A DNA stretch of 64,000 nt, taken from NCBI GenBank assembly GCA_934247115.1, contig CAKQIY010000011.1:449-64448 (forward strand), given 5' to 3'. Under the pieces are notes generated by a model. That model was given only the letters and a program-made list of their open reading frames with translations, searched no databases and was not told the origin of the DNA. The position numbers were made by a program, and so were the translations under genes. The DNA is from an uncultured Coprococcus sp. (GTDB lineage: Bacteria > Bacillota > Clostridia > Lachnospirales > Lachnospiraceae). This document shows positions 8,357 through 28,798 of this stretch, piece by piece. Within the stretch, counting starts at the first letter, position 1. Each line of letters starts with the position of its first letter.

Positions 8357-8403
8357 CAAAGATGTTAAGTAAAAATGATATACAACATAGGAGGATTGGA
8401 GCA

Positions 8404-10236: not shown

Positions 10237-10264
10237 AGTGATATGGAAGGAGTATCTTTAGGGT

Positions 10265-12829
10265 ATGGCTACTATTAAAGGTATAAAGAATCGTCTTGGT
10301 GCGGCTGGAAGAGCGCTGAGTGGAGAATACACATTCGGCGATGGACAGAAGCAGGACGGAAAACTTGATTCATCCAACAGGATGAAGGCAGCCCGCAGGG
10401 CACTTGGGGGAGATTACGCCCTCAGTGAGGGAAAGCCCGTGGTGAAGGTTAATCCTGTTGAGATTAAGAGGAATGCAATTTATGACACTCCGGAGGAGAT
10501 TCAGCAGGCTGTTGACCAGGAAGCTGATCTGGAGAGAAAAGAAAGAAAGGAGAAGCTTATAAGCGACTGGAGAAACAGTGCGATCAGGGATGACAGTGAC
10601 AAGACGGTGGGCTGTCTGGATCCTGATTACTGTTGTGGCTGTGGAGCGTGTTCAAGCGTATGCCCTACAGGTGCCATAAGCATGGAGTATGATGCAGAGG
10701 GATTCCTTGCACCGGTTATTGATATGGATAAGTGTACACAGTGTGGTTTGTGTAAGAAGATATGTCCATCGATCAATATAAGATATGACAATTTCACGGA
10801 ACCATCATGCTATGCTGCATATGCAAGTGATGAGATAAGGGAGAAGAGCTCCTCAGGTGGTATATTCACACTGCTTGCAGAGTTTGCATTTGAGCAGGGT
10901 GGCGTTGTGTGTGGAGCCGGATATACAGATGATTTTAAGGTCGAGCACTTTATTATAGAGAGCCCGGATGATCTTGATAAGCTCAGAAAATCCAAATATG
11001 TCCAGGCAGACGCGTCCAAGATATATGCGGATGTGAAGAGAATATTAAAAGAGGGCAGAACTGTACTGTTCTGCGGATGTGGATGTCAGGTTGCAGGACT
11101 TTATGCAACATTGAAGAACGTTGACATATCAAACCTTTATACGATCGACCTGATGTGTCATGGAGGTCCGTCGCCAAAGCTGTTCGATGATTATCTTAAC
11201 AGGTATCATGGCAAGAATGAGGGCAAGGTGGCTGAGGTAGGCTTCAGAGACAAGGATTACTTTGGTTGGTCTACAGAGATGACTGTTAAGTACACAGATG
11301 GTACAGTATATCACAGAACAAGGACACTTGATCCGTTCTACAAGGCATTCCTGCCATGTATATCAACAAGAAAATTCTGCGGCCACTGTGCATTTGCAAA
11401 ACTTCCAAGACAGGGAGATATAACCCTGGCAGATTTCTGGGGAGTAGCAAAGTATAACAGTGCATATACAGATGGCAAGGGTACATCTATCGTGTCAGTG
11501 AACAGCGAGCAGGGCGTTAAGATATTCGAGGCAATTGCTTCCAGGCTGCTTCTCAATAAGCCGCTTCCGCTCAGGGATGTGCTGGGCACAGGACAGCCAT
11601 TTGACCACTGTTTCAAGAGCCATCCGGCAAGACAGCGTTACTTTGAGCAGATTGCCAATGGCGCTGCCATGGAGAAGGCATTTGACTATGCGGTCAGAGG
11701 CAAGTATGACGTAGGTATATATGGTGTATGGTTTGGAACGAACTATGGAAGCGTTGCAACATACTATGCGCTGCATCAGATAATACGTTCATTTGGCCTG
11801 TCGGTTCTCATGATCGATAAGCCGGGCTCAGGAAGAGATGTGGAGGTGGAGGACAATCATGCGAGAAGATTCTCCAATGCACATTATCATATAAGCAAGA
11901 GATATACCATAAGGGATCTCAGGCAGCTCAATTCAATAGTTGATACATTCATCATGGGATCTGATCAGGTATGGAACAGAGGAATAAGCAAGGGCTTCGG
12001 ATATTCATTCTACTTTGATTTTGTAGATCCGGATAAGAAGAAGATTGCGTTTTCAGCTTCATTTGGACATGGAAAAGACTTCTGTAACGTGCAGGACAGA
12101 GATACGATCTCAGAGTATATGCATAGATTTGATGGAATATCACTCAGGGAGACAAGTGGTGTCCGGATATGTAAGGATGTGTACAATGTTGATTCAGTCA
12201 GAGTTCTGGATCCTGTATTCGTAGCAGAGAGAAGTGAATTCGATGCACTGGCTGACCAGGCAAAGAAAAAGCACGAGGGCAAGTACATGCTTGCATATAT
12301 ACTTGATCCTACACCTGAGAAGAGAGCTGCTGTGGTTGAGGTATCAGAGAAGCTTGGACTTGAGGTAGTAGTTCTCCTTGATGGACGTCCAAAGGACCCT
12401 AAGAAGAACAGAGAGATCATGGATATGGACGATAAGATTGTTGACGATATAACAGTTGAGGACTGGCTGAATTTCTTCAGAAATGCTGAATTTGTTGTTA
12501 CAGATTCTTGTCATGGAATCAGCTTCTCACTTGTATTCGAGAGAAATTTTATTGGACTGGCAAACAGATCAAGAGGAATAACAAGGTTTGAGTCGCTTGT
12601 GGATGTATTCCAGGTAAGAGAGCATTATGTACATGAGGCTACAGAGATCATGGGCAACGATGATCTGTTAAAGCCTGTTGATTACAGCAAGGTAAACAGC
12701 ATACTTCTGTCTGAGAGGGAGAGATCACTGGCGTGGTTGAAGGAAGTGCTGTTCAGCCCTAAGGTAGTAGACGGATACAAAGCGTATCCGATGATAGACA
12801 AGAGTTTGACAGAGGATAAGGAGGATTAG
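10265..12829 (+). CDS. Fusion protein: 2x[4Fe-4S] ferredoxin, FrhB-like (F420 hydrogenase/dehydrogenase beta-like) and polysaccharide pyruvyl transferase
   Basis: 854 aa. Cys clusters CCGCGACSSVCP and CTQCGLCKKICP. FrhB-like SSGGIFT. C-terminal pyruvyl-transferase motifs GSDQVWN and VTDSCHGISF. Confidence 0.8.
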   Translation: MATIKGIKNRLGAAGRALSGEYTFGDGQKQDGKLDSSNRMKAARRALGGDYALSEGKPVVKVNPVEIKRNAIYDTPEEIQQAVDQEADLERKERKEKLISDWRNSAIRDDSDKTVGCLDPDYCCGCGACSSVCPTGAISMEYDAEGFLAPVIDMDKCTQCGLCKKICPSINIRYDNFTEPSCYAAYASDEIREKSSSGGIFTLLAEFAFEQGGVVCGAGYTDDFKVEHFIIESPDDLDKLRKSKYVQADASKIYADVKRILKEGRTVLFCGCGCQVAGLYATLKNVDISNLYTIDLMCHGGPSPKLFDDYLNRYHGKNEGKVAEVGFRDKDYFGWSTEMTVKYTDGTVYHRTRTLDPFYKAFLPCISTRKFCGHCAFAKLPRQGDITLADFWGVAKYNSAYTDGKGTSIVSVNSEQGVKIFEAIASRLLLNKPLPLRDVLGTGQPFDHCFKSHPARQRYFEQIANGAAMEKAFDYAVRGKYDVGIYGVWFGTNYGSVATYYALHQIIRSFGLSVLMIDKPGSGRDVEVEDNHARRFSNAHYHISKRYTIRDLRQLNSIVDTFIMGSDQVWNRGISKGFGYSFYFDFVDPDKKKIAFSASFGHGKDFCNVQDRDTISEYMHRFDGISLRETSGVRICKDVYNVDSVRVLDPVFVAERSEFDALADQAKKKHEGKYMLAYILDPTPEKRAAVVEVSEKLGLEVVVLLDGRPKDPKKNREIMDMDDKIVDDITVEDWLNFFRNAEFVVTDSCHGISFSLVFERNFIGLANRSRGITRFESLVDVFQVREHYVHEATEIMGNDDLLKPVDYSKVNSILLSERERSLAWLKEVLFSPKVVDGYKAYPMIDKSLTEDKED

Positions 12830-12834
12830 GGAAC

Positions 12835-13935
12835 ATGGCAAAGTATGATTATCTTATAGTCGGAGCCGGACTGTTTGGTGCGGTGTTCGCGTATGAGGCA
12901 CAGAAGAGAGGCAAGAGCTGTCTTGTGATCGACAAGCGTTCACACATTGCAGGCAATATCTACACAGAGCAGATTGAGGGAATCAATGTACACAAATATG
13001 GTGCCCACATATTCCACACTTCAGATAAGAAGATATGGGAGTATGTAAATCAGTTCGCTGAGTTTAACAACTATATCAATTCACCTGTGGCATCATATAA
13101 GGATGAGTTGTATAATCTGCCATTCAATATGAACACATTCAGCAAGATGTGGGGAATCAAGAAGCCTTCAGAGGCAAAGGCTATCATCGAGAAGCAGATT
13201 GCAGACCTTAACATCGGTGAGCCAAAGAATCTTGAGGAGCAGGCCCTCAAGCTTGCTGGTACAGATGTGTATGAGAAGCTTGTCAAGGGATATACAGAGA
13301 AACAGTGGGGAAGACCATGTACAGAGCTTCCTGCATTCATCATCAAGAGACTGCCTCTGAGATTCATATACGACAACAACTACTTCAATGACCGTTTCCA
13401 GGGAATACCAATGGGCGGATACACACAGATCATTGAAAAGATGCTTGAGGGTGCAGAGGTCAAGACTGACACGGATTACTTCGATTTCATCAAGGATAAT
13501 CCTGACATTGCAGACAAGACCGTATACACAGGTATGATCGACGAGTTCTTTGGATTCCAGTATGGCCCACTTGAGTATCGTTCAGTAAGATTCGAGACAG
13601 AGGTACTTGATGAGGAGAACTATCAGGGAAATGCTGTTGTGAACTACACACACAGAGATGTTCCATACACAAGAATCATCGAGCACAAGCACTTTGAGTT
13701 TGGCAAGCAGCCAAAGACAGTTATCAGCCGTGAGTACTCAGCTGAGTGGAAGCCTGGCGTAGAGCCATACTACCCTGTAAATAATGACAAGAACAATGCA
13801 CTTTATGAGAAGTACAGAGAACTTGCAGAGACTCGCAAGGATGTAATATTCGGTGGAAGACTTGGACAGTATAAGTACTATGATATGGATAAGGTAATCG
13901 CTGCCGCACTTGAGTGTGTGGAGGCTGAGTTCTGA
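12835..13935 (+). CDS. glf: UDP-galactopyranose mutase
   Basis: 366 aa. FAD motif YDYLIVGAGLFGAVFA. HKYGAHIFHT and the C-terminal GRLGQYKYYDMD are typical of Glf. Confidence 0.93.
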   Translation: MAKYDYLIVGAGLFGAVFAYEAQKRGKSCLVIDKRSHIAGNIYTEQIEGINVHKYGAHIFHTSDKKIWEYVNQFAEFNNYINSPVASYKDELYNLPFNMNTFSKMWGIKKPSEAKAIIEKQIADLNIGEPKNLEEQALKLAGTDVYEKLVKGYTEKQWGRPCTELPAFIIKRLPLRFIYDNNYFNDRFQGIPMGGYTQIIEKMLEGAEVKTDTDYFDFIKDNPDIADKTVYTGMIDEFFGFQYGPLEYRSVRFETEVLDEENYQGNAVVNYTHRDVPYTRIIEHKHFEFGKQPKTVISREYSAEWKPGVEPYYPVNNDKNNALYEKYRELAETRKDVIFGGRLGQYKYYDMDKVIAAALECVEAEF

Positions 13936-13964
13936 TAATATCAGCAGGTATATAAGAGATAAAG

Positions 13965-14007
13965 CAGGCACATATATGGTTATGGCAGAACCGTATATGT
14001 GCCTGTT
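13965..14007 (+). terminator. Hairpin after glf (weak terminator)
   Basis: caggcacatatatgg pairs with ccgtatatgtgcctg. The T-tract is poor (ttctgtc). Confidence 0.35.
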
Positions 14008-14113
14008 CTGTCATAAAATGTATGTACACATTATTCATAACGTGATAAAATTACAATAATTATGGGTATATACCCAGGGGGTAATGAAAAATTAAGGGTA
14101 AAGGGCGTATATT

Positions 14114-17100
14114 ATGATGAAAAGAAAGAGGATTGCTGTACTCACGGCGGAAGCTGATGAGTACACACAAGGTAGATTCCTCTCAGGTTTTTTTGGGAAA
14201 GCCTTTGAATTGGGGTATGATGTGTGTGTTTTCTCAATGTATCTGAAGTGCCAGGATACAAACAGCCGTGAGATAGGAGATTCCAATATATTTAACCTGG
14301 TGGAGTTTGACAGATATGATGCAGTGGTCATATTCACAGACAGGATCAGGACTCCGGGCACGGCGGAGGGACTTCTATGGAGAGTAAAGCAGGAGTTTCA
14401 TGGTCCTGTGCTCATCATGGAGGACAAGATAGAAGAATATAATTCTGTGAATATAGATCACAGGGACAATATATGCAGAGTGACAGACCATCTGATAGAG
14501 GTTCATGGGTGCAGGGATATAGTCATGCTTGATGGCAGGAAAGATAATGTGAATTCTGACCAGAAAAAGCAGGGATTTCTGGACAGCATGGGGATGCATG
14601 GTCTTGATTGCAATGAAGAAAATATATACTACGGCAATGACTGGTATGACTCTGGCCGCAGTGTGGCAGCGGAGCTGTGCGATAACAGGGAAAGTCTTCC
14701 GGACGCGGTGGTGTGTGCTTCTGACTATATGGCGATAGGCCTGGCATCTGAGCTGGAACACAGGGGGATACGTGTGCCTGAGGATATAGCAGTTACAGGA
14801 TATGATGCATCAGATATGAACGATGAGCGGGCGGTACCACTGACCTCTGTGGATATTCCGGCCAGAGAGGATGGTATATACGCGGCAGACTGGATCGATG
14901 CACAGCTCACAGGCAGAGAGATGAAAGTGCAGAGAAGCCGTTCAGCCATACATATAGGAAGAAGCTGTGGGTGCAGCAGATGTGTAGGCCGACAGCCTAT
15001 GGCGGATTATAAGATATGGGATATAGGCAGCCAGATGGGCGGCTGTGATTCATACTACAATCACATGATGGAGGACTTGTTGTCACAGAGGGACTACAGG
15101 GGATTCTACAATACCATATTCCAGTATGCGAATCCAGATGGTGGTTTTGGACGTTTCAGTCTGTGTATGAATGAGTACTGGAATTCACCTGATGTGATGA
15201 TAGGGACACATGCCCTCAGAGTGGGATATACCAAGAACATGTACAGGATCATCAGACGCGGTGAGAGCGACAGGGATAACGCTATAGATTTCGATGACTG
15301 CTTCGATGTGTCCAGACTTATACCGGAGCTGGACGAGGACAGAGAAGATCCGGAGGCGTATGTATTTACACCTATCAATTTCGATGACAGATGTTTTGGA
15401 TATGCGGTTGTGAGCCATGGGCGTGAATGTAAGGGCTATGACAGCCAGTACAGGAACTGCCTGAAGCAGATCATGCAGGGGCTGGAAGCCTTTTATAGAC
15501 AGGCAAGCCTGCAGAAGCTTCTCGATAAGATGAATGCATCGCAGATAAGAGATGATCTTACTGGTGTATATAATTACAATGGCTTTCTCAGCAGATGCCG
15601 GAGCATGTGTGACGAAGCGATCGTCCATGGAAGGAGTATTATGCTCCTTGCAATAGATATGAAGGGACTTGGACAGATCAATGCCAGATTTGGCAGAAAG
15701 ACCGGAGATGAGACGATACAGTCCCTGGCAGACATGATAATTTCCTCCATAGATAAGACGGATGTATGTATGAGAATGTGCAACGATGAGTTCATAGTGG
15801 CATTACAGGTGGATGATAGAGCCCAGGATCATGTTCACGACATAGTCAGACAGGTGGAGGAGAAGGCAGCACTGTTCAATGCTGTGAATAAAGAGGACTT
15901 TACCATGGATGTGTGCTCGGCGTTTGAGCAGGTGATGGTTACCGGAGCCGAGGAGCTTGATAAGCACATCAATAACCTCATAAGCCGAAAGAACAGCGAG
16001 AAGATGAAGGAGTACATAGAGAACAGCCGCAATTCAGCTCTCTCCCAGGAGGATATAGAGAATGACAGACTGGTGGCAGATATACTCGACAACAATCTCC
16101 TCACATACCACTTCCAGCCTATAGTCAATGCGAGAACAGGACAGATATATGCATATGAGGTGCTCATGAGATCCACTTCAGAGAAGTATATTTCACCGCT
16201 TGATATAATACAGAGTGCGGAGCGAATAGGAAGACTGAGTGATGTGGAGAGATCCACATTCATCAATGTGCTTCAGATCATAGACGAGAGGGAGGAAGAG
16301 GTTGCCGGAAGGAAGATATTCCTCAACAGTATTCCTGGTTGTAGACTCTCCAGGGAGGACACTGCGGTCATAGAGGATAAGCTCAGACGCAGAGGCGGAC
16401 AGGTTGTTGTGGAATTTACAGAAGAGGCCGAGATGAGTGATGACAGGCTTCAGGAGATCAAGGATAAATATGTAAGGATGAATATAGAGACTGCCATAGA
16501 TGATTATGGTGCAGGATACTCCAATGTCAACAATCTTCTCAGATACATGCCACGCTATGTGAAGATTGACCGCATGCTTATGACCAATATTCACGAGGAT
16601 CCACAGAAGCAGCATTTTGTTAAGGATATTATTGAATTTGCACATGACAATGATATAGTCACTCTGGCGGAGGGCGTTGAGCTGGATGTTGAGCTCAAGG
16701 AGGCCATACGTCTCGGTGCAGATCTGATACAGGGATATTATACAGCCAAACCATCGGCTGAGGCTGTGCAGGAGATAGACAAACGCGTCGTAACAGAGAT
16801 TGTCCAGTACAACCAGAACGAGATAACGAAGTATGGCAAGAAGACATACGTTATCACGGATGAGAATGAGATATCCATGGTACAGCTGGCATTTAATAAG
16901 TACACGGCGCTCGATTTTAAGAAGGTAGATGATCAGTACAAATATATCAACATGACAGGAACGCCTGGATTCAAATCCAACATGCTCATAACCATAGGAG
17001 ATGGCTTCCGGGGAGAACTCCGGATCGATGGTATCAGTCTGGGTGGAGAAAAAGGCATTCCGTGTATCAGTATTGGAGAGAACTGTGATGTGAGGATTGT

Positions 17101-17917
17101 ACTCTTTGGTGATAATGAATTCCGTACAGGAGGAATACAGGTAGCAGAGTCGTCCAGATTCGAGCTTGCGGGTGACGGCGATCTGAGGATAACCCTTGCA
17201 GGAGGCAGGTATTTTGGAATAGGTAATGATCTTGCATCCAGACACGGCGATCTGTATTTCAATCAGGATGGAACTTTGTCCATAACGGCTACGGGAATGC
17301 GAGGAGTAGGTATAGGCTCAGGACTCGGTGGCAATATACATATCGGCCATGGAAGGTACGAGATAGACCAGCGAGGTCAGGAGGGCGTGGTTATAGGTTG
17401 TGTTGACGATGACTGCCGGCTTCATATAGAGAACTGTGATATAGAGATATACAATGGAATCGCCAGAAGTGTTACTGTTGGTTCATACAATGGGGATGCA
17501 GATATAGAGATAGAGAATATATCGGGCAAGATATCCGGAGCTTCCATCTCAACTGCGGTCATAGGAACCATGTGTGGACAGCAATGTCATGTACGGATGC
17601 AGAATGTGAATGTGACCATGAATATAAGATCAAATGAATGCTATGGAATCGGATGCCGGCAGGGATATACTGATATATCCATACAATATGCTTATGTAAA
17701 GGTTGTGGCACAGGGAAAAGAAGCGTATGCCATGGGCAACGGAAGCCACAGTGCGAAGCTTCTGTTCTCCAATTCAGATATCAATACGCAGGTGGTCAAC
17801 AGCGTCGGTATGGATATCGGAGCTCAGGAGGATGATATAAAGATAGGCAACGGAAGAGTGAGCTTTATGGTCAATGGAATCACAAGGGAGAGAGAAGTGC
17901 ACATGGCAGATCTGTAG
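14114..17917 (+). CDS. Cytoplasmic multidomain c-di-GMP protein: LacI-type sugar-binding (PBP) domain, degenerate GGDEF, EAL phosphodiesterase, and a roughly 350-400 aa repetitive C-terminal domain
   Basis: 1267 aa with no TM segment or HTH. GGDEF position reads CNDEF (15779-15793). EAL motifs are EVL (16157-16165), DDYGAGYSN, KIDR, EGVE and QGYY. The C-terminus has a repeat of about 28 aa. Confidence 0.85.
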   Translation: MMKRKRIAVLTAEADEYTQGRFLSGFFGKAFELGYDVCVFSMYLKCQDTNSREIGDSNIFNLVEFDRYDAVVIFTDRIRTPGTAEGLLWRVKQEFHGPVLIMEDKIEEYNSVNIDHRDNICRVTDHLIEVHGCRDIVMLDGRKDNVNSDQKKQGFLDSMGMHGLDCNEENIYYGNDWYDSGRSVAAELCDNRESLPDAVVCASDYMAIGLASELEHRGIRVPEDIAVTGYDASDMNDERAVPLTSVDIPAREDGIYAADWIDAQLTGREMKVQRSRSAIHIGRSCGCSRCVGRQPMADYKIWDIGSQMGGCDSYYNHMMEDLLSQRDYRGFYNTIFQYANPDGGFGRFSLCMNEYWNSPDVMIGTHALRVGYTKNMYRIIRRGESDRDNAIDFDDCFDVSRLIPELDEDREDPEAYVFTPINFDDRCFGYAVVSHGRECKGYDSQYRNCLKQIMQGLEAFYRQASLQKLLDKMNASQIRDDLTGVYNYNGFLSRCRSMCDEAIVHGRSIMLLAIDMKGLGQINARFGRKTGDETIQSLADMIISSIDKTDVCMRMCNDEFIVALQVDDRAQDHVHDIVRQVEEKAALFNAVNKEDFTMDVCSAFEQVMVTGAEELDKHINNLISRKNSEKMKEYIENSRNSALSQEDIENDRLVADILDNNLLTYHFQPIVNARTGQIYAYEVLMRSTSEKYISPLDIIQSAERIGRLSDVERSTFINVLQIIDEREEEVAGRKIFLNSIPGCRLSREDTAVIEDKLRRRGGQVVVEFTEEAEMSDDRLQEIKDKYVRMNIETAIDDYGAGYSNVNNLLRYMPRYVKIDRMLMTNIHEDPQKQHFVKDIIEFAHDNDIVTLAEGVELDVELKEAIRLGADLIQGYYTAKPSAEAVQEIDKRVVTEIVQYNQNEITKYGKKTYVITDENEISMVQLAFNKYTALDFKKVDDQYKYINMTGTPGFKSNMLITIGDGFRGELRIDGISLGGEKGIPCISIGENCDVRIVLFGDNEFRTGGIQVAESSRFELAGDGDLRITLAGGRYFGIGNDLASRHGDLYFNQDGTLSITATGMRGVGIGSGLGGNIHIGHGRYEIDQRGQEGVVIGCVDDDCRLHIENCDIEIYNGIARSVTVGSYNGDADIEIENISGKISGASISTAVIGTMCGQQCHVRMQNVNVTMNIRSNECYGIGCRQGYTDISIQYAYVKVVAQGKEAYAMGNGSHSAKLLFSNSDINTQVVNSVGMDIGAQEDDIKIGNGRVSFMVNGITREREVHMADL

Positions 17918-18030
17918 ATCACGTATGTACAGGACAAGGTTAATGTTATTTAATATTGTGTTGTATCAGATTGTGAAGTATAATACTGCCGTTTGATAGA
18001 CAGTACAATAATAGATGAGAGAGATAAGAT

Positions 18031-19461
18031 ATGGTTTTTTCAAGTTTGATATTTTTATTTGTATTCCTTACTGCGAATCTGATTGTGTATTTTGCAGTGA
18101 GCCCAAAGAACCGCAATAAGACATTGCTTATATTTTCACTTGTTTTCTATGCATGGGGTGGACCTCGGTATCTGCTTTTGCTGGCAGGCGAGACGCTGGT
18201 GAGCTGGTTGTTCGCTATAAAGATAGACGAGTCACGCGCCGGATACACCAAGAGGTCAGAGAAGTTCTACCTTGTGTGTGACCTTGTGATCATGCTGGGA
18301 TGCCTTGCTATTTTCAAATATCTTGGTTTTTTCCTTGGAAACATCAAGGGGATATTCGGAGTGCCTAAGGTTGTTCCAGAGATAGTACTACCTATAGGAA
18401 TATCATTCTATACATTCCAGCTTATATCGTATGTCGTGGATGTGTACAGGAGCCAGGTGCGACCTCAGAAAGAATACTGGAAGCTGCTCCTGTATTCGAG
18501 TCTGTTCCATCAGTGTATAGCTGGTCCTATCGTGCGTTATGAGACCGTTGCTGATGAGATAGAGAACAGAGAGATAAAATCCAATGACATATACATGGGA
18601 GTTCGTAGATTCACAGTTGGCCTTGCCAAGAAGGCCGTTCTTGCCAATTCATGCGCAAGCATCGCTGATACGCTTCTTCCGGCAGGAGTGGAAAGTCTGA
18701 AGATGCAGACAACTTTTGGAATGTGGCTTGGTATGATTGCATATATGCTGCAGATATATCTTGATTTCTCTGCATATTCAGATATGGCGATAGGTATGGG
18801 TCGTATGGTTGGATTCCATTACGATGAGAATTTCAATTATCCATATATGGCTACATCAGTTAATAACTTCTGGAGAAGATGGCATATCTCGCTGAGCTCA
18901 TTTTTCAGGGATTATGTGTATATACCACTGGGCGGTAACCGCTGTGGTACCGGTAAGTATATAAGAAATATGGCGATAGTATGGTTCCTGACGGGAATGT
19001 GGCATGGTGCCAGCTGGAATTATATATTCTGGGGCCTTTATTATCTGGCGTTCCTGCTGCTGGAGAAGTTCTATCTCGGTGGCCGCCTGGGACCTGTGGC
19101 ATCACGTATCTATACACTGCTGGTTATCCTGTTTGGATGGGTTATATTCAAGTTTGAGAGTCTTTCTGAGCTGGGAACAGTTCTTATAGGCATGTTTGGA
19201 ATTGGCAATGCAGGTTTTGCCAATATGGCGGTGGGAACAGTATTCCTCAAGAATATGTTCTTCCTGATATTTGCATGTATTGCATGTACAGATCTTGGTA
19301 AGCGTATCAGAAAGACCTCAATAGAACTGGGCAAGGTACATCCAGTTATATTCAAGGTACACAATGTATGTGAGATGCTCACACCAGCAATACTTCTCAT
19401 AGTGTCAGTCCTGGCACTTGTCGGAGCAAGCTACAATCCATTCCTGTATTTCCAGTTCTAG
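18031..19461 (+). CDS. MBOAT family O-acyltransferase (AlgI/DltB-like)
   Basis: 476 aa, polytopic. Conserved MBOAT region FWRRWHISLSSFFRDYVYIPLGGNR...WHGASW. Confidence 0.9.
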   Translation: MVFSSLIFLFVFLTANLIVYFAVSPKNRNKTLLIFSLVFYAWGGPRYLLLLAGETLVSWLFAIKIDESRAGYTKRSEKFYLVCDLVIMLGCLAIFKYLGFFLGNIKGIFGVPKVVPEIVLPIGISFYTFQLISYVVDVYRSQVRPQKEYWKLLLYSSLFHQCIAGPIVRYETVADEIENREIKSNDIYMGVRRFTVGLAKKAVLANSCASIADTLLPAGVESLKMQTTFGMWLGMIAYMLQIYLDFSAYSDMAIGMGRMVGFHYDENFNYPYMATSVNNFWRRWHISLSSFFRDYVYIPLGGNRCGTGKYIRNMAIVWFLTGMWHGASWNYIFWGLYYLAFLLLEKFYLGGRLGPVASRIYTLLVILFGWVIFKFESLSELGTVLIGMFGIGNAGFANMAVGTVFLKNMFFLIFACIACTDLGKRIRKTSIELGKVHPVIFKVHNVCEMLTPAILLIVSVLALVGASYNPFLYFQF

Positions 19462-19503
19462 ACCGAAGAAAAGAACTGATACAGAACGTGTGATAGTGGA
19501 GAA

Positions 19504-20946
19504 ATGAAGGTAGATATGAAAAGAAGATATACAAGAAGTCAAAGACAACAGATAGTAAAGTTCAGAACCCTGGCGGTGTTGGGATTTGCTGCGGTTATGG
19601 CTATAGGAGCATTTATAGGCCTGATATTCTTTGCAAGACCAAAGACATCGAAGACAGAGAAGAGAGAGCTTGCAAAGTTTCCGTCGTTCACCATAACATC
19701 ATTCCTGGATGGATCGTATTTTGAGGATGTATCTCTGTGGTATTCAGATACATATCCTATGAGAGACAAGCTTGTGGCAGCTGATCAGAAGCTTAAGTCA
19801 CTTTATGGTATTAATGCCGGAACCCAGGTGGTTGGAAGCGGCTCGAAGGGTGATGACATTCCGGACATAGAAGAGAATGATGGAACAGCTACGCCGGAGG
19901 ATGCGGTCATGGCAACCACGGAGTCGACAACGGAGGACCCGGAGATCGGCTTCCCTGCCAGCAAGACGGCAGGCAACAGAAAGGATATCACACCTGAGAG
20001 CAGTACAGTTCAGACTGTGGATCCGCCAGATTCAAAGGCCATGGATGAGGCTTTCCAGAAACAGCTTCAGGATAATCTGTATGTGAAGGATGGTTCTGCA
20101 TACAGCCTGTATTATTTTGTACAGGATTCTGCAACAGAGTATATAGATGCCATCAACAATGCTGCTGCACAGCTGGCAGGCAGGACAAATGTATATGATA
20201 TACTCGTGCCAAACAATTCGGGAGTATTGCTCTCAGATGATGATCTGAAGAAGCTTGGAGGCTCAGATCAGAAGCAGGCTATAGAATATTATTACAGCAA
20301 GATGAAGGGCGTTAAGACAGTTGATATATTTGATACATTGAAGTCCCACAAGGATGAATATATATTCTTCAGGACAGATCATCACTGGACTGCAGATGGG
20401 GCCTTCTATGCATATGAGGATTTCTGCAAGGTCAAGGGTATAACAGAGATTCCTCTGGCGGACAGGAAGAAGGATACATTTGAGGGCTTCCTTGGAAGCT
20501 TCTACAATACTCTGCAGAACTCAGATATGAAGAAGAATCCTGACACGATATATGCGTATGAGCCTATAGGAACGAATGACATGACATACTGGAATGACGA
20601 TGGCTCTGAACAGAAGTGGAACGTTATCATGGATGTGAATGGATGGGATAAGGGTACCATGTATTCAACATTTGTGGGCGGTGACAATCCGATGGCAGTT
20701 ATAGAGAATCCACAGGTGACAGATGGATCATCATGTGTAGTCATGAAGGAATCGTATGGCAATGCGTTCATACCATTCCTTGTGGATCACTATTCTACAA
20801 TATATATCATAGATTACAGATATGCACAGGTTAATATTCTGGACTTTGTAAAGGACAAGAAGGTTGATGATATCATATGCATTAACAACATATCTCTCAT
20901 CGGAGACCAGGATGTGGTAGCAACCATAAACAGTCTGCTGCAGTAA
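19504..20946 (+). CDS. DHHW-motif protein (AlgJ/AlgX-like extracytoplasmic acyltransferase partner of MBOAT)
   Basis: 480 aa with an N-terminal TM anchor. Signature FFRTDHHWT. Lies immediately downstream of the MBOAT gene. Contains an acidic low-complexity linker (TESTTEDPE). Confidence 0.8.
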   Translation: MKVDMKRRYTRSQRQQIVKFRTLAVLGFAAVMAIGAFIGLIFFARPKTSKTEKRELAKFPSFTITSFLDGSYFEDVSLWYSDTYPMRDKLVAADQKLKSLYGINAGTQVVGSGSKGDDIPDIEENDGTATPEDAVMATTESTTEDPEIGFPASKTAGNRKDITPESSTVQTVDPPDSKAMDEAFQKQLQDNLYVKDGSAYSLYYFVQDSATEYIDAINNAAAQLAGRTNVYDILVPNNSGVLLSDDDLKKLGGSDQKQAIEYYYSKMKGVKTVDIFDTLKSHKDEYIFFRTDHHWTADGAFYAYEDFCKVKGITEIPLADRKKDTFEGFLGSFYNTLQNSDMKKNPDTIYAYEPIGTNDMTYWNDDGSEQKWNVIMDVNGWDKGTMYSTFVGGDNPMAVIENPQVTDGSSCVVMKESYGNAFIPFLVDHYSTIYIIDYRYAQVNILDFVKDKKVDDIICINNISLIGDQDVVATINSLLQ

Positions 20947-21015
20947 GGAACAAGGGTAAGTGTTGTGATGGGTACACAACAGCACACATTTTTTGAGCTT
21001 GGGGGAGCTTAGAAC

Positions 21016-23325
21016 ATGAATAAAAGATTGAATATCGGTTTGCTGGTGGACGATGTTGATGCGGTATTCACAAGTCCGGCAGTACAGGGGGCAGAGCTTG
21101 GAGCGAAGGCAATAGATGCCAATCTGTTTATCGTTCCCGGAAGATACCTGGATAATGCAGATGAATTTCAGAAGGACAAAAAGTATGGCTATCAGTACAA
21201 TACACTGTTTGAGTATGTCAAGAACAGCAACATTGATGTGCTCTATGTGATGATGGGAATGATAGGCGCAAGAGTTACGGAGAAGGTCAAGATCAGGTTC
21301 CTTGAAGGATTCGGGGATATCCCGATAGTTACCATGTACACGAGGACCAAGGGCTATCCATCTATTATATTTGACAACAAATGTGCATTTGTACAGGGTA
21401 TAACTCACATAATAAAGGATCATCACGCCAGAAAGCTGGGATATGTGAGTGGTCCGATGACCAATGTGGATGCGGTGGAGCGACTGGAGGCGTACAGGGA
21501 AGCTCTCGAACATGCTGGCATTCCATATAATGACGACTATGTTGTATATGGTAATTTCGAGGAGAGCAGTGAAGAACTGATAGGTGAGCTTGTAGACAGA
21601 TTCCCTGACCTTGATGCTGTCATATTTGCAAATGACAGAATGGCATTTGGAGGATACAGGGCATTTGAGAAGAGAGGAATACGTCCGGGAGAGGATATAG
21701 CAGTTCTGGGCTTTGATAACGCAGAGTTTGCGCCGGGACTCAACCCACCACTGTCCACAGTTGAGGCGAATGCGGCTGAGCTTGCATATAAGGCGATAGT
21801 ACAGGCTGAGAGATTCTACAACAGGGATGACGATATAGATCTGTATGTGGATGCCAGGCTTGTACTCAGAGAATCCTGTGGCTGTACTGGAATCAACATA
21901 GAATCCATAGTGTCACAGACTGGGATAGATGGAATCCTGGATGACAGCAGAAGAAGAGATGCACACGAAAAGGTGTGTGATTATCTGTTCAATGATTATA
22001 TAGACAGTGATGAGGCTGCTGCGGTGAGGCGCAGTGTGGTGGGCTTCCTTGATGATATGGCAGACTATACTCGCAGCGGATACATCAGATTTAACGGAGC
22101 CCAGATGGAGAAGAGCTTTGCAAGATTGATGAATCGGGCGACATTCAGGTATACGACGCTTGAACAGGTATCCAATGTCATGGCGGCACTTCAGATGGTT
22201 CTGTGTGACAGTCTTGGTACGGAGGATAAGCTGGAGCTTATGCAGATATTCATGGATATGACAAGAAAGCTGTCTCTGCAGAACTGGAAACTTATATACA
22301 ACAGCAACACAGGCATAGGCCGAATGTCCAGATTTATCAACAACATGACAACTGATATGTTCAGAATGGATTCGGGGGAACGTATACCATATGATAGTGC
22401 GCTTGAGAATCTGTCGTATGTGGACATAGCATCAGCATATCTGTTCCTGTATGAAGATCCAATACATCATGAGAGATTTACGGAATTTCATCTGCCTCAG
22501 AAGATAAGGTTTAAGGCGTATTACAGTGACAATCGTGCTTACAGTATAGAAAAGGAAGAACAGGATGTCGACACCAGTGATATATTTGGAATAGACAAGC
22601 TCCCATCGGACAGAAGAGTTACGATGGTACTGTCACCATTGTTTTCCGGGGAGGATATATTCGGTGTGCTTCTGTGTGAGGCTGGATTGGAGAACTTCCG
22701 CAACATAGATCCGGTGAGTGTGCATATATCAACAGCCATTAAATCCATGGTTCTCCTGAAGCAGCAGGATAAGGTCCAGGCACGTCTGGAGGAGACCATG
22801 GCCAAGCTAGTGGAGAACAATGATGCGCTGCAGGTGATGTCCAAGACGGACCAGCTCACCGGACTTCTCAACAGATGGGGCTTTCTGGATGCAGTACAGA
22901 GATTTATGGAGACTGCGGGGACAGATCAGAAAGGCGTATTCATGTACGCTGATATGGATGGCCTGAAAGCGATCAACGATACCTATGGCCATGACGATGG
23001 AGATTTCGCACTGAAGTCAATGGCTTCGATACTCAGGCAGTCGTGCGATGAGGATGTCATTGTATCCAGGTTCGGAGGAGACGAATTTGTCATGTTCAGT
23101 ACCATAGACAGCGATTCTGATGTGGACAGACTGAGGGCCCGTATATGGTCAGAGACGGTAGTGTTTAACAGTGGGATCAATAAGCCATATCGTATTGATA
23201 TGAGTACAGGTACATGCGTGGTTGAGTGCCGGCCGGACATAGATGTGTTCCAGGCGCTTGCAACTGCTGACCGACTTCTCTATCAGGAGAAGCGGGCAAA
23301 GAAGCTTCGCAGGATGGCTGAGTAA
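21016..23325 (+). CDS. Cytoplasmic LacI-type sugar-binding (PBP) domain fused to a GGDEF diguanylate cyclase
   Basis: 769 aa. Starts directly in the PBP core (NIGLLVDDVD) with no HTH and no TM segment. Intact active site RFGGDEFV (23074-23088) and LTGLLNRWGF. Confidence 0.88.
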   Translation: MNKRLNIGLLVDDVDAVFTSPAVQGAELGAKAIDANLFIVPGRYLDNADEFQKDKKYGYQYNTLFEYVKNSNIDVLYVMMGMIGARVTEKVKIRFLEGFGDIPIVTMYTRTKGYPSIIFDNKCAFVQGITHIIKDHHARKLGYVSGPMTNVDAVERLEAYREALEHAGIPYNDDYVVYGNFEESSEELIGELVDRFPDLDAVIFANDRMAFGGYRAFEKRGIRPGEDIAVLGFDNAEFAPGLNPPLSTVEANAAELAYKAIVQAERFYNRDDDIDLYVDARLVLRESCGCTGINIESIVSQTGIDGILDDSRRRDAHEKVCDYLFNDYIDSDEAAAVRRSVVGFLDDMADYTRSGYIRFNGAQMEKSFARLMNRATFRYTTLEQVSNVMAALQMVLCDSLGTEDKLELMQIFMDMTRKLSLQNWKLIYNSNTGIGRMSRFINNMTTDMFRMDSGERIPYDSALENLSYVDIASAYLFLYEDPIHHERFTEFHLPQKIRFKAYYSDNRAYSIEKEEQDVDTSDIFGIDKLPSDRRVTMVLSPLFSGEDIFGVLLCEAGLENFRNIDPVSVHISTAIKSMVLLKQQDKVQARLEETMAKLVENNDALQVMSKTDQLTGLLNRWGFLDAVQRFMETAGTDQKGVFMYADMDGLKAINDTYGHDDGDFALKSMASILRQSCDEDVIVSRFGGDEFVMFSTIDSDSDVDRLRARIWSETVVFNSGINKPYRIDMSTGTCVVECRPDIDVFQALATADRLLYQEKRAKKLRRMAE

Positions 23326-23378
23326 GACAGATATAAATAGACAAAATATATAAAGGCTTGAAAGAAGGAGGATGTATC

Positions 23379-24161
23379 ATGGAGAGATTAGGTTTCATAG
23401 GTATGGGTAATATGGCACAGGCACTCTGTGCAGGATTTGTGAATTCAGGGAAGATAGCGGCTGAGAGTGTATATGCATATGCACCACATTATGACAAGCT
23501 GGTGAAGAACTCAGAGAAGTATGGATTTACCCCGTGTAAGACACTTGCAGAGCTGGTGGATGCCGTGGATACGGTCATCATGGCATGCAAGCCTTATCAG
23601 ATCAATGACGTTCTCGTTGAGATAGGAGAGAGACTTCACGGCAAGGCTCTTGTGTCGGTGGCAGCTGGCTGGGATTTTAAAAAGTACAGTGAGTATTTTG
23701 ACAGTTCGGTGAGAGTACAGTTTGTAATGCCGAATACTCCTGCCATGGTATATGAGGGAGTTATGCTCTTTGAGGCACAGAATTCCCTTGAGGAGGAAGA
23801 AAGGACACAGATCAAAGAGCTGTTCGCGGCTGTGGGAATTGTGGAGGAGCTTCCATCGAATCTCATGGGTATAGGTGGAGCAGTTACAGGATGTGGTCCT
23901 GCATTTGTTGACCTGTTCATAGAGGGCTATGCGGACGCTGCCGTGAAGTACGGCGTGCCTAGACAGACTGCGTACAGACTCATATCACAGATGATCCTGG
24001 GATCTGCCAAGCTTCAGCTTGAGACCGGTGAGCATCCGGGTGTGCTGAAGGACAACGTGTGCTCCCCTGCGGGAACAACCATCTGCGGTGTGGCATCTCT
24101 TGAGGAGTCAGGCCTCAGAAGTGCCTGCATTAAGTCTATCGATTCGATCATGAATAAGTAA
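23379..24161 (+). CDS. proC: Pyrroline-5-carboxylate reductase
   Basis: N-terminus LGFIGMGNMAQAL, C-terminus VCSPAGTTI. The ATG at 23379 follows SD gaaggagga; the track start is 23358. Confidence 0.9.
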   Translation: MERLGFIGMGNMAQALCAGFVNSGKIAAESVYAYAPHYDKLVKNSEKYGFTPCKTLAELVDAVDTVIMACKPYQINDVLVEIGERLHGKALVSVAAGWDFKKYSEYFDSSVRVQFVMPNTPAMVYEGVMLFEAQNSLEEEERTQIKELFAAVGIVEELPSNLMGIGGAVTGCGPAFVDLFIEGYADAAVKYGVPRQTAYRLISQMILGSAKLQLETGEHPGVLKDNVCSPAGTTICGVASLEESGLRSACIKSIDSIMNK

Positions 24162-24173
24162 TAACGGCAAAGC

Positions 24174-24210
24174 CCCTGTATGATTGAAATATCATACAGG
24201 GACTTTTTTA
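24174..24210 (+). terminator. Terminator between convergent proC and the histidine kinase gene
   Basis: Stem ccctgtatgat (24174-24184) pairs with atcatacaggg (24191-24201), followed by actttttta. Confidence 0.7.
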
Positions 24211-24222
24211 TTCCTTGACTTT

Positions 24223-26802
24223 TTATTTCTTGAATTTTGAGAGGATGCTTATAAGCTGTCTTATGTTCAGTGGCTTTGACAGGTGCTCGTTCATGCCCGC
24301 CAGACGGCATCTTTCTAGATCTTTAGCAAATGTGTTGGCAGTGATGGCGATGATAGGGATGTTCTGTGCATCCGGATGCTCGAGCTTTCTTATGGCGTAG
24401 GACGCTGAGATTCCATCCATCACAGGCATCTGAAGATCCATAAGGATGCCGTCGTAGGTTCCGGCAGCAGATGTGGAGAACATGTCAACGCACACGGAGC
24501 CGTCCTCAGCGCGCTCACAGGAGATACCATTCATACCCAGAAGCTCAGACACGACCTCATAGTTGAGTTCGTTATCTTCTGCCACCAGAAGGTGCATTCC
24601 TGCACACAGGGATTCTGCGTCGCTGCTATCACCGGATTGTCCAGACCACAGATCATCCTTTATGATATAAGGGACGTCGATGCTTACCTCGATGATAGTT
24701 CCACCACCCGGATTGCTCTGTACTGTGATGGTACCCTGCATTAGATCCACAAGCTCCTTTACTATGGCGAGCCCCAGACCGCTTCCGCGCACTTTGCTGA
24801 TCCTGGTGTCTGTCTCGCGGGAGAATTTGTTGAACATGCTCGCCTGATATTCAGGCTTTATTCCAATTCCCGTGTCGCTTATTCTGGCGACGAGACGTAT
24901 CTTATCGGAGCCAGGTATATTCTCCTCATATAATTCAAACCCAACGTCGCCATGACCAGGTGTGAACTTGATGGAGTTAGACAGCAGGTTAGAGTAGATC
25001 TGTTTCAGCTTGAGTCCATCGGCCAGGATGTAGTCGTGATATATATCGTGACAGTTGAAGGTTATATTGAGTCCGTCGTTCATGAGAGCCTGATCGAAAA
25101 CCATGTTCAGAGTATGACACAGCTCGGATACAGATGTTTCACAAGGCTTAAGCTGCTGTCTGCCGTTTTCCAGATTCGTTATGTCAAGGATGTTGCTGAC
25201 GAGCTGTTCTATATAAGCCCCGGACGTCCTGAGCTTGCCCAGACAGTCGTCCATCTTGCTTGAATCGCCTAGTGATTGCTTTGCTATGTCGGCAAATCCC
25301 ATTACGGCATTCAGAGGTGTTCTTATGTCGTGAGCCATCTTGGACAGAAACTCGGACTTTGCCTCGTTTGCCTTGTTGGCCTCCTCTGCCAGGAGCATCC
25401 AGCTCTGTTCACGTCTCTTTTGTTCGCTGATAAGCCTTGTTACATACAGTATGTTGGTCACGTTGCCAAGAGCATCTCGCTTCTTCACAATAAATCTTGC
25501 CGAGTGCCAGTTGCCGTCGTTGGCGAGATAATCCATGGCTATGGTCTCGTCTGTGTGGAGACGCTCTGCGATGGTCGACAGATCAAAGAAATCAAGTATC
25601 TTGTCCTGATATTCGGGAACGACGAAGCGGTGACACAGCTCCTTCATCTTGGAGGAAGCTCTTCCCATGCGGCCTGTAAGTCTGTGTACCTTGTTATCGC
25701 TGGACACCTCCTCGTACATGTCCTGTGTAAGATCTATCCTGTATATTGAGAAGTAGATCTTGCTTATGGCGGATATGATCTCATTGTTCAGGTTAGCCTC
25801 GTCAAGTGCCTCCTGGAGCTGCCTCCTCGAATTTTGTTCAAAGCTCACAAGCTCGTCTATCTGCTTGAAGCCAATCAGCACCCTTGAAGATGAAGCCGCT
25901 GAAAAAGGGAATATCTCAGCCTCAAAGTTTTCCTGGCCCACTGCGTTCGGAGTCACCCGGTATCTGTAAGAAAGCTTAGGGTGAGCGGCAAGATGATTCT
26001 GTATATGCTCTGCGCTGAGGATTTCTGTGAAGTCCGGGGCAGATTCTTTGATGACATATTTTTCGTAATACTGTCCGATCAGCTCTGAGTAGCAGAATGT
26101 TTTCTCAGCTTTGATGTCGTGTATGTGGGCAGCATTTGCCGCTGGGTCAAGCTTTAAAGGCTCGAGAGAATCATTCTGAAGATCCACGCAGTAGACGGAT
26201 ATGTAGTCCGTGCACAGAACAGACATGAACGTCCTTTCACGGTTCAGATCCGACAGGCTCTTTTCGAGAGAATTATTGCGCTGCTCAAGAAGCTCGGTCA
26301 TTCTGAGAGTCTCCCTTACATTTCCGAGATGACCGCCCACAACCCCAAGCAGACTTATAAAGGATTCCGAACTCTCTATGTGGGGATTGTCCACACCGAT
26401 AAAGCCTTTGAGCTGGTCCTTATAGAAGATAGGAAATGCTATTTCAGAGTGAATATCCTGCATGACCAGAAGCTGATACTCGGAAGGCATTAGATCCTTC
26501 ACATCCTCCACGTTATCTATGATCATACTGTCGCCGCGCTCAAATGCTTCCAGCCAGTAAGGCATGTCGGCGGAATCCACGGACTGAAGATTGTCAATCC
26601 ATGGCTGCACATTGTCACCGCACCACTCATATGAGTTGCGGAATATGTTGTCAGTCTCATCCCAGTCAAAAATATAAACTCGTTCTGACGAAGTGCAACT
26701 TCCGATGATACGGAGCAGAGTCTGTATGGATGCTCGGAGTTCAAAACGGTTTTGGGCTCTGTCAATGGCAACCATCTGCTGTAGTATAACAAAATTATCC
26801 AT
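24223..26802 (-). CDS. Cytoplasmic hybrid sensor histidine kinase (GAF-like N-terminus, HisKA, HATPase, REC)
   Basis: 859 aa with no TM segment. H-box AHDIRTPLNAV. ATPase boxes LLSNSIKFT, DTGIGI, GSGLGLAIV. C-terminal receiver LMDLQMPVMDG. Confidence 0.9.
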   Translation of the reverse strand: MDNFVILQQMVAIDRAQNRFELRASIQTLLRIIGSCTSSERVYIFDWDETDNIFRNSYEWCGDNVQPWIDNLQSVDSADMPYWLEAFERGDSMIIDNVEDVKDLMPSEYQLLVMQDIHSEIAFPIFYKDQLKGFIGVDNPHIESSESFISLLGVVGGHLGNVRETLRMTELLEQRNNSLEKSLSDLNRERTFMSVLCTDYISVYCVDLQNDSLEPLKLDPAANAAHIHDIKAEKTFCYSELIGQYYEKYVIKESAPDFTEILSAEHIQNHLAAHPKLSYRYRVTPNAVGQENFEAEIFPFSAASSSRVLIGFKQIDELVSFEQNSRRQLQEALDEANLNNEIISAISKIYFSIYRIDLTQDMYEEVSSDNKVHRLTGRMGRASSKMKELCHRFVVPEYQDKILDFFDLSTIAERLHTDETIAMDYLANDGNWHSARFIVKKRDALGNVTNILYVTRLISEQKRREQSWMLLAEEANKANEAKSEFLSKMAHDIRTPLNAVMGFADIAKQSLGDSSKMDDCLGKLRTSGAYIEQLVSNILDITNLENGRQQLKPCETSVSELCHTLNMVFDQALMNDGLNITFNCHDIYHDYILADGLKLKQIYSNLLSNSIKFTPGHGDVGFELYEENIPGSDKIRLVARISDTGIGIKPEYQASMFNKFSRETDTRISKVRGSGLGLAIVKELVDLMQGTITVQSNPGGGTIIEVSIDVPYIIKDDLWSGQSGDSSDAESLCAGMHLLVAEDNELNYEVVSELLGMNGISCERAEDGSVCVDMFSTSAAGTYDGILMDLQMPVMDGISASYAIRKLEHPDAQNIPIIAITANTFAKDLERCRLAGMNEHLSKPLNIRQLISILSKFKK

Positions 26803-27052
26803 AAAATACCCCCTTTATGTGTGTAGGTTTTTGAAATATTAATACATAAGGCTCTGTTTTTAAGACAATTTTACCTATTTTGAGAGAAAAAATCCATATT
26901 AATGGCAATTAATTCCATAGACAATATTTGTTAAAGACAATAGAATTAATGTGGGTATTTACAAAGAGCTTGCGTAATTATACAAAAGATCCAATATATG
27001 AAAAATACAAAAGCAGTTGCAAGTGAAAATACTACATTGAGGAGTGGATCAA

Positions 27053-28506: not shown

Positions 28507-28543
28507 ATCATTGTAGTGTGAGAAAAGAGAGGAGATTTATGAG

Positions 28544-28798
28544 ATGAAGAAGAGGGCTGTTGCCAGAATGATGGCGGCTGTTATGGCCGTGAGTATGCTT
28601 GCTGGTTGTGGTGGTTCAGACGGCGATACAGCGAAGAAGGTGAATCTTGATCCAGATCATCCGGTATCACTGAAGATATGGCATTACTACAATGGAACCC
28701 AGCAGGCAATATTTGACAATCTGGTTGATGAGTTCAATGCTACCAAGGGCAAGGATGAATGGACATCTGTCCAAGCCGGTGAACATAGGAAAGTTTGA
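28544..28798 (+). pseudogene. Relic of an ABC-type extracellular solute-binding lipoprotein gene (about the first 70 codons only)
   Basis: Lipobox LAGCGGS and a typical SBP N-terminus KIWHYYNGTQQAIFDNLVDEFNATKGKDE, then loss of similarity and a stop at codon 85. Full-length SBPs are about 400-450 aa. Confidence 0.6.

Follow-up and report, generated by a model that had tools for sequence, protein, structure and literature searches.

Two soluble LacI-core c-di-GMP enzymes around an MBOAT-DHHW O-acetyltransferase pair in an uncultured Coprococcus sp.: one system or a lineage-specific juxtaposition?

Do two cyclic di-GMP (c-di-GMP) enzymes that bracket an O-acyltransferase gene pair form one signaling system with it, or do they merely lie beside it in some genomes? 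The question is raised by a 64,000-nucleotide (nt) stretch of an uncultured Coprococcus sp. genome (assembly GCA_934247115.1, contig CAKQIY010000011.1, positions 449 to 64,448; the whole stretch is referred to here as the window). Four open reading frames (ORFs), all on the + strand, encode a sensor-GGDEF-EAL protein (P1, 14114-17917, 1267 residues), an MBOAT protein (18031-19461, 476 residues), a DHHW protein (19504-20946, 480 residues), and a sensor-GGDEF protein (P4, 21016-23325, 769 residues). The initial annotation had read them as a single module in which a sugar-gated c-di-GMP switch controls polysaccharide acylation. The four co-directional genes and the domains that it named are indeed present, as judged from the ORF list, Pfam, and motifs. 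The genes are real, i.e., P1, P4, and the DHHW protein have full-length homologues at 35-98% identity, and an identical DHHW protein is encoded on 21 metagenome contigs with the gene order unchanged. At slightly better than even odds (about 55%), we read the locus as a lineage-specific juxtaposition of a housekeeping PatA1/PatB1-type pair and soluble metabolite-sensing c-di-GMP enzymes, not as one four-gene system.

A survey of relatives contradicts the claim that the four genes are one co-conserved unit, P4 being lost from some of them and homologues of P1 and P4 occurring elsewhere. The complete unit was found only in loci whose P4 is at least 58% identical to that of the window (L001, L085, L086, and L100), and the order Glf-P1-MBOAT-DHHW-P4-proC only in relatives with a P4 58-83% identical. 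In four other loci (L093, L094, L096, and L097), with DHHW proteins 80-85% identical, P4 is missing and DHHW is followed directly by proC. Remnants of the P4 3′ end persist in L094 (~100 nt) and L093 (~40 nt), which indicates that P4 was ancestral to this small clade and then deleted, with two different end points. Alignment of the window with L094 gives 78% identity upstream through the DHHW stop and 94% from proC on, with P4 cleanly missing. The predicted P4 cyclase is dispensable, and the bracketing of the pair by P1 and P4 is an accident of one small clade.

The same alignment has a second aspect. Across window positions 9506-33129, compared with L094 (a human-gut relative) and L093, the block made up of the glycan genes, P1, MBOAT, and DHHW has ~78% DNA identity, and the sequence from proC onward 94-97% (99% for the ProC protein). 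This suggests either recombinational exchange or fast evolution of the surface-glycan/acetylation block on a conserved backbone.

P1 and P4 are members of two large paralogous families of soluble c-di-GMP enzymes in Clostridia and beyond. Relatives of P4 were sought in species-representative genomes with two search patterns, one of them a generic GGDEF motif. Among the matches listed (80 loci) there are ~35 full-length relatives, at most 42% identical, from Clostridia, Spirochaetes, Chitinispirillales, Cellvibrio, and Niveibacterium, and MBOAT and DHHW genes are missing within 10 kb of every one of them. The neighbors of a 49%-identical P4 relative are likewise unrelated genes. Relatives of P1 at 37-49% identity come from six independent lineages, and none adjoins MBOAT-DHHW; their neighbors are GdpP-L9-DnaB (in two lineages), PFK, a tandem copy plus GH94, an aminotransferase plus CinA, and an alpha-amylase plus fab genes.

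The acyltransferase genes show the reciprocal picture. Each of the 46 distant loci that span at least 8 kb has MBOAT immediately upstream of DHHW, and a GGDEF, EAL, or HD-GYP gene is found near only one of 66 distant MBOAT-DHHW loci (870 kb in all). The five distant pairs that were sampled are flanked by housekeeping genes (DivIVA, rpoB, DAP dehydrogenase, MscS, and HflX). MBOAT-DHHW is a self-contained two-gene unit. Nor is the tie to a galactofuranose (Galf) glycan locus general, given the five pairs among housekeeping genes and the Coprococcus-type loci described below, which have no such locus. In the one distant locus with a c-di-GMP gene (L167, 3157-7452), a large GGDEF ORF, cut by the contig end, begins 4 nt after DHHW.

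The initial annotation of the middle genes as a glycan O-acyltransferase pair is supported by Pfam, the PatB1 match, and the conserved blocks; the pair is PatA1/PatB1-like.

18031-19461, + strand: MBOAT protein (PatA1/AlgI/DltB-like), multi-pass, with RWHIS and WHG histidine motifs (Pfam MBOAT, E = 7.3e-29)
19504-20946, + strand: DHHW-family SGNH-like O-acetyltransferase (PatB1-like) with one N-terminal transmembrane anchor (Pfam, PDB)

The MBOAT protein has a weak DltB match, and its transmembrane segments are evident from hydropathy; 42 nt separate its gene from DHHW. The DHHW protein matches the full Pfam DHHW profile (PF14286; 7.1e-112, 374.9 bits) and, weakly, AlgX. Its blocks D292-H293-H294-W295 (Block V, DHHW) and D437-Y438-R439-Y440 (Block II, DXRY), as defined for this SGNH-like family (PMC9487903), are invariant. 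In Bacillus, PatB1 together with the MBOAT protein PatA1 O-acetylates the secondary cell-wall polysaccharide (PMC9487903). The window resembles the PatA1-PatB1 arrangement of B. cereus/anthracis in the order MBOAT then DHHW-family transferase, in both conserved blocks, and in the pyruvyltransferase-containing wall-glycan locus nearby. The PatB1 match is distant, however (PDB 5v8d, 1.9e-16), and the closer one is an uncharacterized Eubacterium siraeum protein (4nzk, 5e-38). The MBOAT protein would carry acetyl groups through the membrane, and the DHHW enzyme, extracytoplasmic and held by its membrane anchor, would attach them to a cell-wall glycopolymer. The substrate may be the pyruvylated Galf glycan of the upstream locus, a suggestion drawn from a neighborhood that is not conserved. 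Our literature search found no report of PatA1/PatB1 beside c-di-GMP enzymes.

A further parallel is the MBOAT/DHHW pair CcsH/CcsI of clostridial cellulose operons (PMC7710045). In the ccs acetyl-cellulose operon, too, such a pair lies beside polysaccharide genes, and the pathway is thought to be c-di-GMP-responsive; in contrast, the window ORFs scanned include no cellulose synthase (CcsA), CcsB, or GH5 CcsZ. In cellulose systems, it is a PilZ domain carried by the synthase that provides the link to c-di-GMP. Among the window ORFs scanned there is no PilZ domain, as had been noted at the outset, nor any other c-di-GMP receptor family.

The features of the two flanking proteins are as follows.

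14114-14983, + strand: P1 residues 1-290, LacI/GalR-type effector-binding core without a helix-turn-helix (HTH) (Pfam, NCBIfam)
14984-15523, + strand: P1 residues 291-470, conserved middle module opening at an SCGC motif (family alignment)
15524-16033, + strand: P1 residues 471-640, degenerate GGDEF (CNDEF) (Pfam GGDEF, 1.9e-17, partial, residues 479-596)
16061-16783, + strand: P1 residues 650-890, EAL phosphodiesterase domain (Pfam EAL, 2.6e-48, residues 658-880)
16826-17917, + strand: P1 residues 905-1267, C-terminal beta-solenoid (all-beta AlphaFold2 [AF2] model, predicted local distance difference test [pLDDT] score 91.7)
21016-21885, + strand: P4 residues 1-290, LacI/GalR-type effector-binding core without HTH (Pfam, PDB, AF2)
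21886-22845, + strand: P4 residues 291-610, helical bundle, small antiparallel beta-sheet module, and long linker helix (AF2)
22846-23325, + strand: P4 residues 611-769, intact GGDEF (RFGGDEF) with the inhibitory site (I-site) lost (Pfam, 2.2e-26, residues 610-763)

Both N termini had been proposed to have a periplasmic-binding-protein fold, and both are LacI/GalR-type cores. In Pfam, the P1 core matches Peripla_BP_3 (2.6e-27, 96.4 bits against a cutoff of 26.5) and Peripla_BP_1 (7.9e-12, 45.7 bits against 22.2), and the P4 core matches the same families (1.2e-20, 74.7 bits, and 2.6e-11, 44.0 bits); these families span residues 59-284 of P1 and 91-288 of P4. The NCBIfam matches of the P1 core are the RbsR, CcpA, CytR, and PurR cores, and the PDB sequences matched by the P4 core are a LacI ancestor, CelR, CcpA, RbsR, and PurR (from 5e-22). 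An AF2 model of P4, built with 50 homologues as input (pLDDT 84.5), superimposes on LacI-ancestor and CcpA cores (E ~1e-16, target-normalized template-modeling [TM] scores of 0.80-0.83). The fold has thus been modeled for the P4 core only, that of P1 being assigned from sequence matches; the two cores are 28% identical to one another.

P1 and P4 are cytoplasmic, and the initial annotation was right that they have no HTH, signal peptide, or transmembrane segment. Pfam finds no HTH family in either protein, both of which begin inside the core, and the alignment of P4 with CcpA opens at about residue 59 of the CcpA chain, i.e., past the DNA-binding headpiece. No transmembrane segment is apparent in the hydropathy scan (maximum Kyte-Doolittle 19-residue mean of 1.08 for P1 and 1.48 for P4, versus 2.4-2.6 for the MBOAT and DHHW proteins). 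The N-terminal ~290 residues of both proteins therefore share the repressor-core fold of CcpA, RbsR, PurR, and LacI but, unlike LacI/GalR repressors, have no HTH and are joined to an enzyme domain as the output in place of DNA binding. These matches point to putative cytoplasmic small-molecule sensors, the ligand class probably being carbohydrate derived. Control of GGDEF/EAL output by a Venus-flytrap-type binding module has parallels in RmcA and CdgH, which have periplasmic sensors of their own, and in NspS-MbaA, where the binding protein is a separate partner; these sensors, in contrast, are extracytoplasmic and of the SBP_bac_3 or SBP_bac_8 type. We found no characterized GGDEF/EAL protein with a LacI-like Peripla_BP domain in the literature; a 2022 census lists it in GGDEF/EAL proteins as a putative sensory domain of unknown function (PMC8846402).

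The catalytic motifs, described beforehand as a degenerate GGDEF plus EAL in P1 and an intact GGDEF in P4, are complete in the EAL domain and in the P4 GGDEF. All EAL motifs are present in P1 (EVL..R, NSIP, EFTE, DDYGAGYS, KID, EGVE, and QGYY), and the catalytic columns are almost invariant among 37 homologues. The best PDB match of this domain, with the motifs aligned, is 6ifq (1.5e-26), a stand-alone active EAL cyclic-dinucleotide phosphodiesterase. P1 is accordingly predicted, from its residues, to be an active EAL phosphodiesterase. Its GGDEF domain reads MRMCNDEF in translation, and among 37 family members only one keeps the second G of GGDEF, which the others have replaced, in most cases by N (GNGEF, CNDEF, GNDEF); the N and GD substrate-contact positions are retained. 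A degenerate GGDEF upstream of an intact EAL is also the arrangement of Caulobacter PdeA (CC3396), in which the degenerate GGDEF binds GTP and activates the EAL domain. By that analogy, the P1 GGDEF may be a GTP-binding regulatory domain, although P1 differs from PdeA in its LacI-core sensor, middle module, and C-terminal beta-solenoid.

The degeneracy of this domain throughout the P1 family could be taken to mean that P1 is a nonenzymatic c-di-GMP/GTP receptor or scaffold, like LapD or FimX, leaving P4 as the sole active enzyme at the locus. NCBIfam does return a weak LapD similarity, among many GGDEF-EAL proteins, and FimX EAL domains are among the PDB matches. These FimX/LapD-like matches are nonetheless ~15 orders of magnitude weaker than that to the active 6ifq enzyme, and the full, nearly invariant set of EAL motifs makes a receptor-only P1 highly improbable.

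P4 is a predicted diguanylate cyclase: D646, D648, K651, N654, D663, R685, G687, G688, and E690, which cover the GGDEF active site and the metal- and substrate-binding positions, do not vary within its family. The RxxD inhibitory site, located five residues upstream of GGDEF, is common in such enzymes but not obligatory. It is missing from both proteins, as was initially observed, DKTD occupying the position in P1 and DEDV in P4 (C-D-E-D-V in the locus clade). About 36 of 50 P4 family members have RxxD (R-x-[ST]-D).

In both proteins a conserved S-C-G-C motif after the core opens the middle module. For the module of P1, Pfam searched at E ≤ 10 listed nothing but RimP_N, at a nonsignificant E of 0.16, and that of P4 has no Pfam match. 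Comparison of the two by hhalign aligned the sheet regions weakly (E = 0.019, probability 2.5%). GAF and PAS were considered as identities for these modules, but Pfam gave no significant match by which to assign either. The linker helix that leads into the P4 GGDEF is ~50 residues long in the AF2 model.

The repeat domain reported at the P1 C terminus is a confidently modeled beta-solenoid with G-rich turns every ~28 residues. Residues ~895-1267 match no Pfam family (E ≤ 10), no NCBIfam model, and no PDB sequence (E ≤ 10), and in Foldseek the resemblance to right-handed beta-helices is weak (E ≥ 0.017, query- and target-normalized TM scores both ~0.2-0.3); assignment to a known family was dropped on these grounds and the domain is labeled a beta-solenoid only. 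When all 1.84 billion representatives were searched with HMMER, it turned up in 273 clusters (50% identity level), invariably at the C terminus. EAL directly precedes it in 10 of 10 proteins scanned, which range from 447 to 1595 residues and have diverse N termini. Being always C-terminal, and after EAL in all those scanned, the solenoid is an undescribed module appended to EAL domains.

The surroundings of the locus have the following features.

478-4637, + strand: Leloir genes galK, galT, and galE, which as conserved backbone anchor the locus on its upstream side (Pfam)
4793-13935, + strand: ABC-transporter-type glycan locus (Pfam)
13963-14009, + strand: 19-bp hairpin just after glf (13940-14020 folds at -33.3 kcal/mol, z = -6.4)
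20960-20994, + strand: weak hairpin plus U6 between DHHW and P4 (20944-21000 folds at -13.4 kcal/mol, z = -2.55)
23379-24161, + strand: proC (pyrroline-5-carboxylate reductase) (Pfam; gene calls on an identical contig)
24174-24201, + strand: canonical intrinsic terminator after proC (-20 kcal/mol, z = -5.5, U-tract)

Leloir and galactofuranose glycan genes lie upstream of the four genes, as originally described. The glycan locus contains two glycosyltransferase family 2 (GT2) genes, an ABC-2 permease and ATPase, a GlfT2-like gene, a Fer4/FrhB-pyruvyltransferase fusion, and Glf (UDP-galactopyranose mutase). The fusion (10265-12829, 854 residues) joins a 4Fe-4S ferredoxin, an F420-hydrogenase-beta-like (FrhB) domain, and a polysaccharide pyruvyltransferase, and is kept in relatives L001, L093, L094, L096, and L100.

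The hairpin after glf probably marks a transcript boundary that sets P1 apart from the glycan locus, and promoter-like sites lie before P1 at 14023-14051 and 14084-14113. The hairpin between DHHW and P4 is possibly a partial terminator; the terminator after proC is the first strong, and the only canonical, one on the + strand downstream of P1. P1, MBOAT, and DHHW, together with P4 and proC where present, are thus probably cotranscribed from a promoter after the glf hairpin. For proC, the mechanical ORF begins with TTG at 23358; a conserved ribosome-binding site plus ATG and the gene calls on the identical contig indicate that the real start is probably the ATG at 23379.

This neighborhood gives rise to another account of P1, according to which it belongs with galKTE/glf and reports galactose, galactose 1-phosphate, or UDP-galactose to the c-di-GMP network, its adjacency to MBOAT being incidental. 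In the two lineages with P1 at this site, the gene just ahead of it is a galactose gene (glf for the window clade, galE for the Coprococcus type), and the P1 core is nearest to sugar- and nucleoside-binding LacI-family repressors. P1 paralogues, moreover, lie beside carbohydrate genes, as a tandem pair before a GH94 phosphorylase (L090, 7510-15118), after an alpha-amylase (L173, 363-6383), and beside PFK (L089), which fits carbohydrate-related ligands. Yet the LacI-family matches are generic (RbsR, CcpA, PurR, and CytR), a strong hairpin lies between glf and P1, and the paralogues in L088, L172, and L174 have no carbohydrate gene nearby. A sensor specifically of galactose metabolism is in our view doubtful as a separate explanation, and it overlaps with the juxtaposition that we favor.

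Several observations weigh against that juxtaposition and speak for a dedicated local switch, in which P1, with or without P4, sets a sugar-responsive local c-di-GMP level, and c-di-GMP, or P1 acting through its solenoid as a trigger enzyme, governs MBOAT-DHHW activity or expression. P1, MBOAT, and DHHW are adjacent in every locus with a DHHW protein at least 56% identical, the L092 type excepted. The trio stays intact while its flanks differ, with glf or galE upstream and P4/proC or a lysyl-phosphatidylglycerol (PG)-synthase-like gene downstream. Coprococcus-type contigs thus carry galK-galT-galE-P1-MBOAT-DHHW followed by the lysyl-PG-synthase-like gene, with neither Galf locus nor P4; their P1, MBOAT, DHHW, and GalE are 48%, 70%, 56%, and 87% identical to those of the window. 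Adjacency maintained through a change of both flanks, as expected of a functional unit, suggests a link. In L092 the P1 position is held, on the opposite strand, by a hydrogenase-like HD-GYP protein, i.e., a predicted c-di-GMP phosphodiesterase of a different type. The P4 clade linked to the locus has specifically lost the RxxD feedback site kept by most of its family, which could reflect a specialized role. The solenoid, an unexplained additional domain found only after EAL, would also be accommodated, and so would the co-directional genes with no strong terminator ahead of proC.

The L092 protein itself (6355-8349, - strand) has 664 residues, is encoded between galE and MBOAT, and consists of ferredoxin and [FeFe]-hydrogenase-like domains fused to HD/HD-GYP; going by these domains, it is possibly a redox- or H2-sensing enzyme.

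The adjacency is open to another reading. galE is 87-88% identical in L091, L092, L102, and L105, where galKTE directly precedes P1 or MBOAT; since the lineages compared are all such close kin, retained synteny is inseparable from selection for adjacency. The P1 genes next to MBOAT do not form one group in a neighbor-joining tree, a result that we use only as a caution, the topology being unreliable at ~48% identity. The spacers between P1 and MBOAT (72-250 nt across loci; 17918-18030 in the window) could hold separate promoters. No receptor that would link the c-di-GMP pool to acetylation, PilZ domain or other, is visible in the window ORFs scanned, and no riboswitch was found. Rfam, including its c-di-GMP riboswitches, gave no gathering-score match in the 64 kb and, at E ≤ 1, only one chance-level small-RNA hit in 13700-24400; RNA elements in the spacers, c-di-GMP riboswitches included, were accordingly discarded as candidates. 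We also found no publication tying c-di-GMP to PatA/PatB-type acetylation. Add to this the deletion of P4 in close relatives, the P1 relatives of six other lineages away from MBOAT-DHHW, and the single c-di-GMP gene near 66 distant pairs, and a dedicated switch appears unlikely. What survives of the switch first proposed is the P1-MBOAT-DHHW link in the window clade and the Coprococcus-type genomes; the four-gene unit does not.

Direct coupling of the c-di-GMP enzymes to acetylation is possible, and its most specific form would make P1 a trigger phosphodiesterase, whose core reads a galactose or nucleotide-sugar metabolite and whose solenoid contacts MBOAT or its lipid-linked substrate, so that acetylation is set by c-di-GMP and sugar status together. 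Though distinctly improbable, this would, if true, be the first second-messenger control of MBOAT-SGNH acylation and the first function for the EAL-appended domain. Precedents exist for c-di-GMP control of polysaccharide modification, as in BcsE/F/G and pEtN-cellulose. E. coli DgcJ-NfrB is a precedent for dedicated local c-di-GMP control of one surface polysaccharide (PMC8669472). Unlike these systems, whose receptors are MshEN, GIL, or PilZ, the window has no detectable receptor, and no precedent was found in the literature for an MBOAT-SGNH acyltransferase as a c-di-GMP target.

Under the juxtaposition reading, the c-di-GMP enzymes would work as follows. A ligand in the cleft of a dimeric LacI-type core would alter the geometry of the two protomers, and the signal would travel via the middle module and the long linker helix. 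In P4 it would reach the GGDEF pair and control c-di-GMP synthesis; in P1 it would reach the degenerate, possibly GTP-binding GGDEF and the EAL domain and control c-di-GMP hydrolysis. Most likely, both enzymes feed a general or local c-di-GMP pool upon sensing a carbohydrate-derived metabolite.

The four-gene set should not, then, be catalogued as a conserved module. Both the MBOAT/DHHW pair type and Peripla_BP-GGDEF/EAL proteins are already known, and the EAL-appended beta-solenoid is undescribed; it may be an output or localization device for phosphodiesterases. The Lachnospiraceae of gut and rumen feed on carbohydrates, and the link from sugar supply to surface behavior is poorly understood in them; soluble c-di-GMP enzymes that reuse the LacI core as a metabolite sensor would provide a direct link. 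If the P1-MBOAT-DHHW link is functional, O-acetylation of wall polymers, which affects phage, lysozyme, and immune recognition, would join the processes controlled by c-di-GMP. The cytoplasmic LacI-core sensor families and the solenoid merit experiments.

A third c-di-GMP-type enzyme is encoded near the locus.

27044-28162, + strand: response regulator with HD-GYP (HDIGK, HHERYDGKGYP)

It belongs to a signaling cluster (24223-30742) whose other members are two hybrid kinases, one of them a GAF hybrid histidine kinase on the - strand, and an Hpt protein. The cluster is present in several relatives, absent from L086, and partly replaced in L085. Farther downstream, a 781-residue ORF with no Pfam family above noise (49722-52067) lies between an MMPL transporter gene and fab genes. 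The window also encodes a 734-residue Pnkp-like RNA-repair protein, which combines kinase, phosphoesterase, and RNA ligase domains and precedes a small metallophosphoesterase (43612-46394). An HAD_SAK_2 protein is encoded at 59367-59909; HAD_SAK_2 is the HAD domain that belongs to "Swiss Army Knife" RNA repair proteins.

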